Positions 41,490-61,439 of a stretch of 64,000 nucleotides of DNA are shown here, piece after piece. The stretch is from a bacterium (GTDB lineage Bacteria; Electryoneota; Electryoneia; Electryoneales; Electryoneaceae), in assembly GCA_963669175.1 (NCBI GenBank), contig OY769902.1, forward strand, positions 1,600,001 to 1,664,000, given 5' to 3'. Every line of letters begins with the position of its first letter. The first letter of the stretch is position 1. Both the position numbers and the translations under genes were made by a program. The notes below the pieces were generated by a model that made no database searches, was not told the origin of the DNA, and saw only the letters and a list, made by a program, of their open reading frames with translations.

Positions 41490-41871
41490 GGACAGTTTGC
41501 TCCGGTATCCCTTTGCGTGTCTATTCCCTGTTTAGCTGGCATACTGAGATTGAGTTTCTGAAACCGCCCCGGCAGGGGCAACCTGTATTAGCCCCGGGCA
41601 GCCGCCGTCAGTTTGGCGACTACCCAGGGAGATGAATCCCAACACTTATTACTCCGCTAGGAGTAACCTGAATATTATTATGGATATATAGTTTAATTTC
41701 TTAGGCAACCCGCTGCCGGGGTTGGCAAGGAGAGCTCATCCATCTCCCACCGTGAGCGCCAAACAGACGGCGCTGGACGGTGGGCTAATTCAGGGAACCA
41801 CTGCCGTGGTTCTTATCCTGCCCGTTTCATCAAGTATCACATGTAAAGGTGCCATCCGGGTAGTATTTGTA
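41490..41871. mobile_element. Hairpin-rich MITE-like element (inverted copy at ~57599-58019)
   Basis: Shared blocks CCGCCCCGGCAGGGGCAACCTGTATTAGCCCCGGG, TACTCC..TAGGAGTAACCT, CCCACCGTGAGCGCCAAACAGACGGCGCTGGACGGTGGG and GAACCACTGCCGTGGTTC; boundaries approximate. Confidence 0.75.
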
Positions 41872-55575: not shown

Positions 55576-55971
55576 CTGTCTCTTACCCACATCTTCTGAA
55601 AGCTGTATCAGTAAAAGAGTTGTGGACATAGCATTTTTAGAATCCCGGCGGGATTCCCTATTTTAGCATAGTGTACAGGCCGTCTGTTTGGCCTGTACAC
55701 TATGTCAGGTATTCTAACGAATAATCAACCCTGGAAGGGTTGCATAATACGCGATTCATATTAGTACGTTCAATAAATACAGGGAATAACGCATTTTATA
55801 TTCTATACAAACCAATTGGGTGTAAGTTATACGTTATGCAACCCTTCCAGGGTTGAGATAAGGTTTGATCTTTTTCGTAGGGTAGACGCTAAACAGACAG
55901 CGTCAACCCTACGCTAAAATATACCACCCCCTCTGGGGTGGCAGAAACACGAAGATGTGAGCAAGAGACAG
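55576..55971. mobile_element. IS50/Tn5-like MITE, copy 2
   Basis: Ends CTGTCTCTTACCCACATCT / AGATGTGAGCAAGAGACAG; flanks GTTCGAGCC and GTTCAAGCC; nearly identical to copy 1. Confidence 0.9.
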
Positions 55972-55973
55972 GT

Positions 55974-56222
55974 TCAAGCCGGGGATGACACAAGGTCAAG
56001 CCGGGGATGACATAAAGTCGAGCCGGGGATGATCTTGACCGCATGGCCCGACTTGCAGGTTTCAAGGATGCCGTTCGAATCATACTGACAACAAATATAA
56101 ATCGTAGTCCTGGGATAATGATAATGAGCAAGTCGGGAATTGCGAAAAGTTGCAATATTATACCAGCATTTGCCTGTCAACTCAGGTCTCGGGGATGACA
56201 TAAGGTCAAGCCGGGGATGACA
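55974..56222. repeat. Cluster of TCAAGCCGGGGATGACA repeats
   Basis: Copies at ~55974, 55997, 56018, 56187 (partial) and 56206; also at ~6926. Confidence 0.8.
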
Positions 56223-57507
56223 TGGAGGCCTCAATCTGATCAATTCTGTCCTGGTAGCTTTTCGCGGCTGCCGGGTTCAGTTCCAGCGCACGTTTTTCCG
56301 ACATGATCGCTTCCTCATGCATGCCCTTTTTCCAGTAGACCATGGACAACGTATCCCAGATGTTGTCATCCTCCGGGGCAAACTCAACCGCTTTACGTGC
56401 CGCGTTGAGTGCGTTGTCCAGGTTCGCGCCCTGCAACGCCCAGAACCAGGAATAGGCATTCAGACCATTCGCGTCTTTCGCATTGATCAGTCCCTGGGCA
56501 TACTCGGGCCCATACGCCTGCATTGCCTTTTCTTCGTCACCGGAGGCGGTGAAAATGGCGGCCAATGCTTCCAGGTCATCCGGTGCGAGCTGATCCTTGA
56601 ACCGTTCAAACAGGATGGTAGCCTGTTTTATCCCGGCAGCCTGGCCCTTCTCTTTGTCCTCGGGATTCAGACTGGCGTAAAATCGGACAACCCACGCGAA
56701 AACGGAATAATTGTCCGGATGTGACTTTTGCAGGTCAGAGAAAATGTCCAGGATGTGCGGACGTTTTTCTTCGTTACGAAGCTGACGGGCCAACAGACTT
56801 CCCACCTCATTAAACATCACACTCTGCGGGAAATCATCAAGGAAAGCGGTCGTCTTGTCCGGCGCATTGTATACTTGGAGCGCACGTGCATATTCATACA
56901 CCGAGACATCTTCACCATTAGGACCAAAGGCTCCTTTTACGGCGCTGGCAGCGTCTTCATCTGCTACGATAGCGTCAACATATACCACCATGCTGTCAAA
57001 CATATACTTGTCCTGAAACCATCCGGCGAGTTGGGCTGCGATTTCAGGATTGGAAGGATCGGCGCTATACGCGCTTTTCATGCTCAGCAGGGTATTTTCA
57101 CCACGGAGCATGCGTTCGAGCTTCGCCTGCACCTTTTCAGGATGGGCGCCGTAACCGACGAAACGATCTACCTCTGCGCCATCAGACTGAACGACGATGA
57201 CCTGGGGAGTGCCACGTACGGCGAATCGCTCGAAAACAGCTTTGCCAGCGTCTGACGTCCTGTCAGTATGAAAGGCGACGAAATTGGACGAAATGAAATC
57301 TTCGAATTCAGGGTTGTTGAAGAACTGCTGATCCAGCAGTTTGCAGGGGGTTCACGTAGGCGAGTAGAAATCGATTACAATATGCTTGCCCTGCGCTTTC
57401 GCCTGTGCCAGGGCCGCTTCAAAATCACCCTGGAACCAGATCGACTGCTGCCTTGAGCAACCGGTCAGGAAAACCAGCAAGGCCATCATGGCCAATGTTC
57501 TCTTCAT
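56206..57507 (-). CDS. Thioredoxin-fold plus TPR lipoprotein, candidate selenoprotein (UxxC; UGA at 57352-57354)
   Basis: ATG 57507 with a GGAG RBS: MKRTLAMMALLVFLTGC...WFQGDFEAALAQAKAQGKHIVIDFYSPT-UGA-TPCKLL...FAVRGTPQVIVVQSDGAEVDRFVGY, continuing in frame into the tracked ORF 56206-57132 (LNAYSW, IWDTL, ALELNP TPR motifs). Confidence 0.85.
57323..57341 (-). promoter_or_regulatory. Candidate bacterial SECIS element
   Basis: mRNA hairpin AACUGCUG-GAU-CAGCAGUU begins at the 11th nt after the UGA and has G in the apical loop. Confidence 0.7.
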
Positions 57508-57598
57508 GCACTACTCCAAATGGTTCTATGTTCTCGTAAAGACTTACTCTTGTCGCAGCAACCTTCCCGTGAAGGGAACAAGATAAGGTTTCAGTCCG

Positions 57599-58019
57599 TA
57601 GAGTGCTAACCCGGATATTGCACGACTGGCACTTGCACATATGATCCTTGATGGAAATGCCAGGGCAAGAATCCTCGATGGAAAGGGCAGGAGGAGAACC
57701 ACGGCAGTGGTTCTCGGTATTAGCCCACCGTCCAGCGCCGTCTGTTTGGCGCTCACGGTGGGAAATGAATGCTCTCCTCATGAACAACCCCGGTAGCGGG
57801 TTGCCTAACCATTCATGTTGTATATCTTTATTAATCTTTAGGTTACTCCTACCGGAGTAAATATATGGTGGGAATCATCTCCCCGGGTAGCCGCCAAACA
57901 AACGGCGGCTACCCGGGGCTAATACAGGTTGCCCCTGCCGGGGCGGTTTCCGAAACCCAGCCTCATTTTGCCAGCGAAACGGGAATAGCCACGCAATGGG
58001 ATACCGTAGCAATTTGTAC
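57599..58019. mobile_element. Hairpin-rich MITE-like element (inverted copy of ~41490-41871)
   Basis: Reverse-complement colinearity of several hairpin blocks; boundaries approximate. Confidence 0.75.
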
Positions 58020-59222: not shown

Positions 59223-61439
59223 CTATTTCCCATCCTGTTTTTCCTGCTGTGTTTCAGGTGCAGGGGCGGCGTCTGCCGGGGGCGCCGGTTTTTCCATTTC
59301 GACAGCGCCGTGTGCGACCAGGTAATCACGCATTTCCGCGGTCTGGGCGCGTGGGATCGGGGATTGCAGGCTGACCATCAGCGGGGTGTTGCCGAGTTGG
59401 TCAACACGGTTGACATCGGCGCCATGTTCCACCAGCAGTTGCACCACATTAAACGAATTCCGCCATGCCGCAAGGTGTAATGCGGTTGCTTTGTAGCTGT
59501 CTTCTACCTCGATATTCAGGCCGCCATCGAGCAGGGCTTCCGCGGCTGGACGGGCGTCGGTCCAGGCGGCGTAATGCAGCGGGCTGGCATGGTTCGAGTT
59601 GAAGACCTCCAGCTTTGCGCCATGTTGGGTCAGCCAGCGAATTGCGCCCGGTTTATTCTCCCAGGCGGCGTAGTGAATGGGACGTTCCATCCGACGGTCC
59701 GCGGCATTCACATTCGCGCCTTTATCTACCAACTGTTCCAGGATTCCCATATCGCCGATCTTGGCGGCAAGGTGGATGGGCGTATCGCCTTCCTTGTCAG
59801 GAACATTGGGATCTGCGCCATGCTCGAGCAGATAGGTTACCTGTTCACGTTTGACCTCGGTGATCGCATGATGCAGCGCGGTCATGCCATCCTTGTCGGC
59901 AGCATTGATATCCGCGCCATGTTCCAGGAAGAAGTTTGTCATCTCAAAGCCCTCGTTCTGCAGGGAGAGGGAGATGACGTTGCGACCGTATTTGTCCTTG
60001 GCTTTGATATCCGCCCCACGTTCCAGCAGCAGCGTCGCGACATCCATCGACTTGTCGCTGGTGGCATAGAGCAGGGGAGTGGCTTCAAACTTGTTCCGCG
60101 CTTCAATCTCCGCGCCCTTGTCCAGCAGGAAAGTGGTCATTTCCAGGTCGTTTTCCATGACCGTCTGATGCAACGGAGTAAACTGGTTCCGGTCCGGGAT
60201 ATTGATGTTTGCGCCCTTCTTGATAAGCAGCTCCGCCATGTCGGTATGCTTGTCCTTGATGGCGATCATCAACGGGGTTTCAGCGGCGTTGTTGTGAGCG
60301 TTCACATTGGCGCCCTTTTTCAACAACAACTTGGCAATATCAATACTGTTGTGGTAGGCGGCAGCATGAAGCGGCGTTTCATCTTTTTCGCTGGTAGAAT
60401 CAATCTTCGCGCCACGCTTAATGAGCAGCTTTGCTACATCCATCGATCCGGTACGAGCGGCGTCGTGCAGCGGAGTCTCACCCTGGTAACCGCTGACGAT
60501 ATTGACATCCACTCCGGCATCGAGCAGCAGTTTGGCGACTTTCTTCGAGTTGGTGCGTGCGGCAAGATGCAGCGGGGTAAAGCCCTGAAAATTCATCTCG
60601 GTCAGGTCCGCGCCGTGCTCGATGAATTCTTTTGCCAGGGAAGCGTCATCCGTTTCACATGCATCGAAGAAAGTCTTGATATTCAGATCAGCGCCTGCTT
60701 CCATCAGCAGTTCACGCATTTCTGTCAGGTCACGATTTTCATCGCTCCGTGCCTTTCGCAAGGGAGTTTCGCCTTCGTTGTCCTGGGCATTGACATTTGC
60801 GCCGTGCGCCAGGAGCAGTTTGGCGGAGTCTATAGCGCCATACCCGGCAGCCAGGTGCAGGGCTGTAGCGCCGTAGTTGGTCACAGCGTTCACATCCGCA
60901 CCGTTGTCCAGCAGAACAGCTACGACATCGGCTTTATCATCTGCGGCGAAATAATGCAGGGGCGTATACCCCAGTTCATCAACTGCATTGATATCCGCGC
61001 CCAGCTTGATCAGGTGTTCGCAGGTGGCCGGGTTTGTGGCCATGTGAATGGGACGTGAGCCGACGCTGTTGATCGCAGTAATATCGGCGCCATATTCAAT
61101 CAGCAGGTCGATAAACTCAGGTGATCCGCCCCAGGCGGCAATGTGGATCGGTTGATTGCCGACAATGCCCTCTTCGGCGTCTACTTTTGCGCCGTTCTCC
61201 AGCAGCAGACGAGCGACTTCCACGGCATTGTGGCGCGCCGCAGTGTGCAATGGCGTATCGTTGATGCCATCCTGTTTTTTCTTAACACTGGCGCCTTCAT
61301 CGATCAGTTTCTGCACAGCTTCGACATCATTGTCTTCAACTGCCTTGAACAGGTCCGGTGTCTCCCCGGCAACCACGCCCCCGGCGAGTACCGCGACAAG
61401 CAGTATCAACAGGCTGTAATGGAATACAGAACGCTGCAC
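59223..61439 (-). CDS. Exported ankyrin-repeat protein (about 20 repeats)
   Basis: Signal peptide followed by repeated TPLHxAA...LLxxGADVNA units. Confidence 0.95.
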   Translation of the reverse strand: MQRSVFHYSLLILLVAVLAGGVVAGETPDLFKAVEDNDVEAVQKLIDEGASVKKKQDGINDTPLHTAARHNAVEVARLLLENGAKVDAEEGIVGNQPIHIAAWGGSPEFIDLLIEYGADITAINSVGSRPIHMATNPATCEHLIKLGADINAVDELGYTPLHYFAADDKADVVAVLLDNGADVNAVTNYGATALHLAAGYGAIDSAKLLLAHGANVNAQDNEGETPLRKARSDENRDLTEMRELLMEAGADLNIKTFFDACETDDASLAKEFIEHGADLTEMNFQGFTPLHLAARTNSKKVAKLLLDAGVDVNIVSGYQGETPLHDAARTGSMDVAKLLIKRGAKIDSTSEKDETPLHAAAYHNSIDIAKLLLKKGANVNAHNNAAETPLMIAIKDKHTDMAELLIKKGANINIPDRNQFTPLHQTVMENDLEMTTFLLDKGAEIEARNKFEATPLLYATSDKSMDVATLLLERGADIKAKDKYGRNVISLSLQNEGFEMTNFFLEHGADINAADKDGMTALHHAITEVKREQVTYLLEHGADPNVPDKEGDTPIHLAAKIGDMGILEQLVDKGANVNAADRRMERPIHYAAWENKPGAIRWLTQHGAKLEVFNSNHASPLHYAAWTDARPAAEALLDGGLNIEVEDSYKATALHLAAWRNSFNVVQLLVEHGADVNRVDQLGNTPLMVSLQSPIPRAQTAEMRDYLVAHGAVEMEKPAPPADAAPAPETQQEKQDGK

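Follow-up and report, generated by a model that had tools for sequence, protein, structure and literature searches.

The window analyzed here is a 64,000 nucleotide (nt) stretch of contig OY769902.1 (positions 1,600,001–1,664,000 of the forward strand, assembly GCA_963669175.1) from a bacterium of the Electryoneaceae, whose genome consists of one contig of 5.45 Mb. An open reading frame on the minus strand of the window starts with ATG at positions 57507–57505 and ends with the stop codon TGA at positions 56208–56206. The frame contains one in-frame TGA only, at positions 57354–57352. This is codon 52, and it is located within the amino acid (aa) sequence DFYSPT-U-TPCK, where U denotes selenocysteine (Sec). 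The TGA column is that of the first Cys of the CxxC motif in thioredoxin folds. The locus is very probably a functional selenoprotein gene, i.e. one that encodes a secreted redox protein with an active-site Sec, a thioredoxin (Trx) domain and a tetratricopeptide repeat (TPR) region.

An earlier note, made from the letters of the window, had proposed that a shorter open reading frame extends upstream through a single TGA at codon 52 to the ATG at 57507, and that the product is an exported UxxC thioredoxin fused to TPR. The frame is present in the sequence as described there. The proposal as a whole is supported, and the tests of the Sec machinery, of the TGA/Cys column and of the contigs were all favorable to it. 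Judged on its sequence, the locus behaves as a selenoprotein gene in every test that is possible without bench work.

The nt sequence 56206–57507 is identical in contigs that were built independently from two sequencing runs of one sample, with depths of 17.6 and 32.1. The contigs from both runs show TGA at positions 57352–57354, and not TGC, TGT or TGG. It is possible that the assembly derives from this sample, and the agreement therefore excludes an assembly slip only.

Selenocysteine machinery
The genome encodes selA (539 bits), selB (348 bits) and selD (356 bits), all of which score over the curated cut-offs. A tRNA-Sec gene is also found (64.7 bits, over its curated cut-off) and ARAGORN assigns it the anticodon tca. 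All four genes on which the earlier proposal depends are thus in the genome, with selC represented by the tRNA-Sec. The selD gene has one in-frame TGA of its own; selA and selB have no internal TGA. TGA is a stop codon in this genome, where 1,833 open frames of 200 codons or more end with it. Of the 79 genomes of the phylum, 74 have selA, among them all six carriers of the Sec-thioredoxin-TPR gene described below. Two selA matches over the cut-off are present in all nine genomes of one family of the phylum (f5).

Conservation of the UGA codon
The orthologue search covered 61 genomes, i.e. that of the window (G000) and 60 relatives, and a profile search covered all 79 genomes of the phylum. The Sec-thioredoxin-TPR gene was found in G000, G001, G009, G033, G036 and G048, with exactly one TGA in each; the five besides G000 have an aa identity of 33%–53%, and the orthologue in G048 is cut by a contig end. 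The profile search returned the same six carriers and no others. The TGA is at one column in all six genomes, with the motifs U-TPC, U-GPC, U-GPC, U-SSC, U-SAC and U-SEC.

A profile-guided scan of metagenome contigs gave 65 loci. A tblastn search with residues 1–140 also gave 65 metagenome matches, and TGA is present in all 61 of those that cover column 52. The remaining four start past column 52, at contig ends. Fifty-nine of the 61 have a UxxC motif, and the other two (L092 and L094) have U-GSSA-C. In these two loci (L092:3088–3135 and L094:3157–3204) there are four residues between Sec and Cys, and the hairpin described below is 6 nt further from the UGA. With respect to homologues, the expectation of the earlier note that TGA or Cys would be found at this column is borne out: all five genome orthologues and all 61 metagenome matches with this column have TGA, and among the best 150 of 331 database representatives the column is present in 41, of which 36 have Cys. 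A contig scan with the single protein gave only a distant DsbD-like match; the phylum to which the matching genome belongs gave no family member at E ≤ 1e-25 (0 of 93), in a search with no positive control for that phylum.

The 51 codons that precede the TGA are also kept as protein. Residues Q20, W24, G27, F29, A32, A36 and K41 are invariant in the alignment of the six genomes (alignment A1). In a larger alignment of 33 sequences (A3), G27 and A32 are invariant and Q20, W24, A36 and K41 are nearly so.

Several metagenome loci show further arrangements of the gene. Tandem paralogues are present in L059/L060, L069, L096 and L098, with three in a row in L098, and each copy has its own TGA and hairpin. 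At L079:157–246 there is a second in-frame stop codon, TAA, 27 codons past the Sec codon; a sequencing error or a defective copy may account for it.

A stem loop downstream of the UGA
The earlier note described an 8-bp hairpin with a G-led loop, which opens 11 nt past the UGA. This hairpin was found at positions 57341–57323, and it is both conserved and covarying. Its sequence is AACUGCUG-GAU-CAGCAGUU, the first nt of the stem is the 11th past the UGA, and the hairpin codes for part of the peptide K-L-L-D-Q-Q-F. It is the putative selenocysteine insertion sequence (SECIS) of the gene.

Conservation was measured in an alignment of the 48 nt that begin with the TGA, which contains 52 of 54 distinct sequences; L092 and L094 were excluded because their two extra codons displace the hairpin by 6 nt. 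The 8-pair structure has 88.7% of its cells paired, versus 16%–65% when the partner strand is slid by 1–3 columns. The covariation score is 0.185, compared with 0.121 in shuffled alignments, and the observed value was reached in none of 500 shuffles. RNAalifold without guidance gives the same core, with 6 bp and a 5-nt loop. The first base of the loop is always G in the aligned hairpins.

The pairs differ in how they vary among the 52 sequences. Pair 16–30 is C-G in 31 sequences, U-A in 19, U-G in one and unpaired in one, and the changes are synonymous on both sides (the first base of a Leu codon and the third base of a Gln codon). The double change at 16–30 separates sisters in the tree described below, i.e. 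L048 from L046, L063/L068 from L070, and L044 from the window, and it therefore has several independent origins. Pair 21–25 is G-C in 33 sequences, C-G in five and unpaired in 14, where a 5-nt loop results. The outermost pair, 14–32, is weak and is unpaired in 29 of 52.

A search rule was set as a stem of at least 7 bp with at most one G-U pair, a G-led loop of 3–5 nt and a start 9–14 nt after the TGA. Such hairpins follow 431 of the 221,272 TGA triplets of the genome (0.19%). Among the 1,833 TGAs that terminate open frames of 200 codons or more, only one is followed by such a hairpin. The hairpin of the window gene exceeds chance expectation. The UGA of selD in the same genome served as a positive control. 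It is followed, 12 nt downstream, by an 8-bp stem with the loop GGU, which is the same design.

The hairpin resembles the SECIS of the E. coli fdhF type in that it is inside the reading frame, about 11 nt past the UGA, and has a G that opens the apical loop. It differs from that type in that it is shorter, has a loop of 3–5 nt (G-R/U-Y) and shows no bulged U. A search of Rfam around the UGA gave no meaningful match.

The peptide that follows the redox motif is variable in relatives that carry Cys in place of Sec (e.g. KVLDDSTY, KRLDKAVF, DLLSRQFF), and L58 and Q61 are invariant in the Sec clade. This pattern is consistent with an RNA constraint on those codons.

A crude screen of the genome for TGAs that have a SECIS-like hairpin and a read-through frame open for 120 codons or more gave 28, which include selD and the window gene. 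Examples on the contig (G000:C1) are at 348061(+), 1176744(+), 2477126(+), 4640638(+), 360773(−) and 4800204(−). The remaining TGAs may be further selenoprotein genes or chance occurrences.

Protein architecture
The best Pfam match of the protein is Thioredoxin_2 (PF13098, 52.3 bits, cut-off 27), followed by Thioredoxin_7 (PF13899, 51.6 bits, cut-off 27). Near the C-terminus there is a match to TPR_8 (27.9 bits, cut-off 25.7). An AlphaFold model built from 33 family members (pLDDT 93.3, pTM 0.85) shows a Trx fold with a helix at residues 53–63 directly after U52, and then about 16 helices that form a TPR superhelix. The putative cis-Pro loop, RGTP, which the earlier note had placed after the UGA, is at residues 98–101. 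P101 is invariant in A1 and in the 33 sequences of A3; T100 is invariant in A1 and nearly so in A3.

The top Foldseek matches in the PDB are TPR superhelices (OGT 1w3b and consensus TPR proteins, E 1e-6). The lipoprotein LbcA, the DsbH-domain protein 7tkv and E. coli YbbN (3qou, rank 18) are also found. By sequence profile, the closest relatives of the Trx part are 2kuc (E 2.9e-20) and DsbD gamma (2fwe, E 2e-9, residues 33–131). The TPR region of the earlier note is thus seen by Pfam, by the model and by Foldseek, and the client-binding role that was given to it is conjectural.

The N-terminal sequence LTGC, at residues 14–17 ahead of the UGA as the earlier note had it, conforms to the lipobox pattern [LVI][ASTVI][GAS]C. 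A start that resembles a signal peptide, with a basic N-terminus and then a hydrophobic run of 9–18 residues, is present in 33 of 33 aligned members. A lipobox-like Cys is found in eight of the 33 (three strict, five loose), and all eight belong to the subclade of the window. The remaining members have signal peptides of the ordinary type. Export is the conserved feature, and the predicted lipid anchor is local to this subclade. The membrane-anchored protein of 433 aa in the earlier note accordingly holds for the family with respect to the export signal, and with respect to the anchor only for the subclade of the window.

The features of the locus are listed in Table 1.

Table 1. Positions of features in the window and of the small exported protein in metagenome loci
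Feature	Position	Strand	Basis
Full coding sequence, 433 codons, UGA52 predicted to be read as Sec	56209–57507	−	orthologues align over whole length
UGA codon 52, predicted Sec, first position of U-T-P-C	57352–57354	−	sequence, orthologues, contigs
Redox motif UTPC, residues 52–55	57343–57354	−	U52 column and C55 invariant in 33 sequences
SECIS hairpin, 8-bp stem 57341–57334 with 57330–57323, loop GAU 57333–57331	57323–57341	−	fold, conservation, covariation
Thioredoxin-fold domain, residues 25–128, including cis-Pro T100-P101 (57205–57210)	57124–57435	−	Pfam, model, PDB profile
All-helical TPR-like superhelix, residues ~140–430	56218–57090	−	Pfam, AlphaFold, Foldseek
Signal peptide with lipobox LTGC, residues 14–17; Cys17 predicted lipidation site	57457–57507	−	pattern match only
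True stop codon, also TGA	56206–56208	−	
GGAG ribosome-binding site, 6 nt before ATG	57514–57517	−	read from sequence
Truncated open reading frame, 308 aa from GTG 57132	56206–57132	−	table-11 open reading frame listing
Terminator-like hairpin, ~260 nt past stop	55922–55943	−	consensus match only
Small exported protein	L067:4531–5109; L057:4479–5042; L072:4526–5098; L077:4524–5096; L066:6713–7279		

Cysteine relatives and database entries
A profile was run against 1.84 billion protein representatives, of which 331 matched at E ≤ 1e-30; the best 150 of these were classified. The counts in this section refer to these 150. The sequences of 109 representatives begin after the Sec column, many of them exactly 3–4 residues past it. 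The column is covered by 41 representatives, and of these 36 have Cys, four have Trp and one has Ser. No full-length entry with U is among the 150. The database entry of the window gene itself is 301 aa in length, and the called start sites vary between homologues. The expectation of the earlier note that standard annotation truncates the gene is thus confirmed, both for the window gene and for the 109 representatives that start past the Sec column.

Cys relatives with the same architecture exist. The closest, P0027, has 509 aa and the motif CQGC, and one source names it a TPR repeat protein. A quick maximum-likelihood tree, which is unrooted, was made from 54 rows (33 Sec, 18 of the 36 Cys and three of the four Trp sequences); it omits multi-domain and fragmentary Cys rows, the Trp sequence P0045 and the Ser fragment. 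A Sec clade, which consists of the 33 Sec sequences and P0027, is separated from a Cys clade of 17 Cys and three Trp sequences with an SH-aLRT value of 99. P0027 is nested within the Sec clade.

The sequences with Trp or Ser at the Sec column are P0123, P0130, P0143, P0045 and P0109, the last being the one with Ser. P0123 and P0130 (SDG-W-GGC) are in the Cys clade. These two may be independent Sec forms that were translated by their source under a code in which TGA is Trp.

Relation to known systems
Sec-containing thioredoxins named “thiol:disulfide interchange” or “Trx-like 2” proteins have been listed since 2004. The entry cd02953 is presumably the DsbD-gamma family. Table 1 of PMC13188914 and the tables of PMC9312934 give the “thiol:disulfide interchange protein”/“Trx-like 2” Sec family with PF13098 and UxxC, and Table 2 of PMC2398784 gives it with cd02953. 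The window protein is like this family in that it has UxxC on a Trx fold and PF13098 as its best Pfam match, and its closest solved and curated relatives are DsbD gamma domains. Its TPR fusion, which is absent from the published descriptions searched, may set it apart from that family. The terms “TPR” and “tetratricopeptide” have no mention in PMC13188914, and its Table 1 of 119 families names no TPR-fused family. The same terms have no mention in the searched texts of PMC9312934, PMC2398784 and PMC1794560, and the deep-Sep paper (PMC12013277) contains none of the terms looked for in it. No paper was found that joins selenocysteine, tetratricopeptide, thioredoxin and selenoprotein families, although supplements may list such genes.

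The Trx domain shares with DsbD gamma, the C-terminal Trx domain of E. coli DsbD (2fwe, 1uc7), an extracytoplasmic Trx fold and the profile similarity given above. Unlike DsbD, the protein is without the membrane and alpha domains, has Sec in place of Cys and has an attached TPR region. Identity with DsbD (NF001419) was rejected, as the score is 40.9 bits versus a cut-off of 330 and the match is only to the gamma part, the last 105 positions.

CnoX (YbbN) of E. coli, 3qou, is a Trx-TPR “chaperedoxin” and likewise has an N-terminal Trx fold followed by TPR. CnoX is cytoplasmic. The structural match to it is weak (TMq 0.20, rmsd 21 Å), the TPR region of the window protein is much longer, and the window protein has a signal peptide.

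NF041199, the Trx7/PDZ (seleno)protein, and NF045694, TsoB, also combine a Thioredoxin_7/DsbD-gamma-like domain with another domain. The partner is PDZ in NF041199, rhodanese and a membrane domain in TsoB, and TPR in the window protein. Their Sec motifs, CxxU in NF041199 and UxxxxU in TsoB, are unlike the UxxC found here (PMC13188914 Table 1). Identity with either was rejected (22.9 bits versus a cut-off of 300 for NF041199, and 51.6 versus 805 for TsoB). No NCBIfam model scores over its cut-off for the window protein, and the best partial matches are to the DsbD-gamma-like ends of TsoB and DsbD.

Sec DsbD-gamma-like thioredoxins are already known, and the exported TPR-fused form is a variant of this known kind.

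Gene surroundings
The window gene stands alone, with a gap of 600 nt ahead of it. Adjacent to it are genes for a transglutaminase-like protein, an ankyrin-repeat protein and a hybrid sensor kinase, the last of which is convergent. The comparison of flanking sequences took in the window, four genome orthologues and 22 metagenome loci out of 65. No neighbor is conserved across the family in these flanks; outside the selA-selD subclade described below, a protease, glycosyltransferases and surface proteins are found. A complete DsbD of 594 aa is encoded elsewhere in the genome of the window.

In five of the 22 loci (L057, L066, L067, L072 and L077) the gene is directly after selA (541 bits) and selD (377 bits). 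L058 duplicates L057 and is outside of the flank comparison. A small exported protein is encoded 15–92 nt past the gene in four of these five loci, and in L066 a homologue is about 2.2 kb further on. It has an invariant YQxCDxxxCxxP motif and a weak similarity to DsbD_N (24.1 bits, below the cut-off of 25). This DsbD-alpha-like protein has no match in the genome of the window at E ≤ 0.01.

The position after selA and selD would suit a selenoprotein whose job is extracytoplasmic selenium handling, i.e. capturing or reducing selenium species, in place of general thiol-disulfide exchange on proteins. This role is unlikely. The selA-selD order is limited to one subclade and the neighbors are unrelated elsewhere, including the three in the window. 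In the same subclade the DsbD-alpha-like protein with its Cys pair comes right after the gene, which points to a protein disulfide relay.

Two other elements were observed near the gene. A repeat of about 100 nt, built on the palindromic hairpin TTACTCC-N4-GGAGTAA, has 96 strand matches in the genome, at about 48 places. One copy in the window, at 57843–57860, lies in the 600-nt gap that precedes the selenoprotein gene, and another is at 41649–41666. The repeat is a candidate miniature mobile element or structured RNA. Two genes upstream, at 59223–61439 on the minus strand, is a 738-residue protein that consists almost entirely of ankyrin repeats (Ank_2, 499.7 bits).

Evaluation of the selenoprotein assignment
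Several observations weigh against the assignment of the locus as a selenoprotein gene. The metagenome loci include near-duplicates. One of the two patterns used to fish for loci is on the hairpin peptide and could favor Sec forms; the other is in the TPR part. As a single sequence of 71 nt, the fold is unremarkable in stability (z = −1.41), and the weight of the hairpin therefore comes from its position and conservation and not from stability. The hairpin is within a conserved peptide, LL[DGV][QE]Q, and its conservation could partly be a constraint on the protein. If the G-C closing pair forms, the loop is just 3 nt, and the loop of the E. coli fdhF SECIS is longer than this. The genes next to it in the window do not include one for a redox partner. 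The selenium content and the expression of the protein are predictions from the nt sequence.

It is improbable that the UGA is read through as another residue, e.g. Trp, Cys or Gly, by a suppressor or near-cognate tRNA. Such a reading would draw on the four relatives with W and the one with S at this column among the best 150 of 331, and on the selenium in the protein being a predicted property. The W entries may, however, be TGA codons translated by the source pipeline under another code. TGA is a stop codon genome-wide, as in the 1,833 frames noted above and at the end of this gene itself, and selA and selB are without an internal TGA. The column is that of the nucleophilic Cys of CxxC in relatives. 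The UGA is followed by a positioned, covarying hairpin like that of selD, and the genome has the full Sec machinery.

That the TGA is a real stop, in a pseudogene or in a locus for a 51-residue lipopeptide and a separate TPR protein from an internal start (e.g. GTG 57132), is hardly credible: gene callers do choose this reading, and the 109 truncated representatives are such calls, but a nonsense mutation is not expected at one column in six of six genomes and 61 of 61 metagenome matches of 25%–53% identity, the stretch from the TGA to the called starts is kept as protein and is part of a single Trx fold that also takes in the residues ahead of the TGA, and start calls are inconsistent across homologues.

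Possible function and significance
With the locus taken as a selenoprotein gene, a mechanism may be proposed. SelB with Sec-tRNA(Sec) would bind the hairpin 11 nt past UGA52, and Sec would be inserted to give the protein of 433 residues in place of termination. The signal peptide would then export the protein, with a probable lipid anchor at Cys17 in this organism. The Trx-fold domain, which is nearest to DsbD gamma, would carry out extracytoplasmic thiol-disulfide exchange by means of a selenenylsulfide/selenol-thiol couple at U52-x-x-C55, in which Sec would make the attack. The TPR superhelix would hold a partner or client protein. Sec insertion itself, the direction of electron flow, the source of the electrons and the ligand of the TPR region are predicted parts of this model. 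The DsbD of the genome is a candidate for the electron source. With respect to direction, the motif is UGPC in many relatives, including the nearest orthologue, G001, and UGPC is similar to the reducing CGPC of thioredoxin.

A broader interpretation may be offered tentatively. The genes would constitute an uncatalogued family in which Sec is all but fixed (33 Sec members and one nested Cys reversion) and in which the SECIS lies within the conserved peptide LL-x-[QE]-Q and constrains it. The protein would be a free-standing, Sec-based counterpart of the periplasmic half of DsbD, equipped with a TPR arm that catches clients, and one lineage would have a cluster of selA, selD and the DsbD-alpha-like gene. 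If this is true, the cluster would tie an envelope electron relay directly to the supply of selenium.

The analysis corrects a systematic annotation error, in that a sizeable family is present in databases as N-terminally cut fragments and is unnamed by NCBIfam. The group of Sec thioredoxins gains an exported member with two domains. The locus is also a clean natural case in which a recoding signal in RNA evolves together with a peptide motif, and it makes extracytoplasmic selenol chemistry accessible to tests in a phylum with widespread selA.

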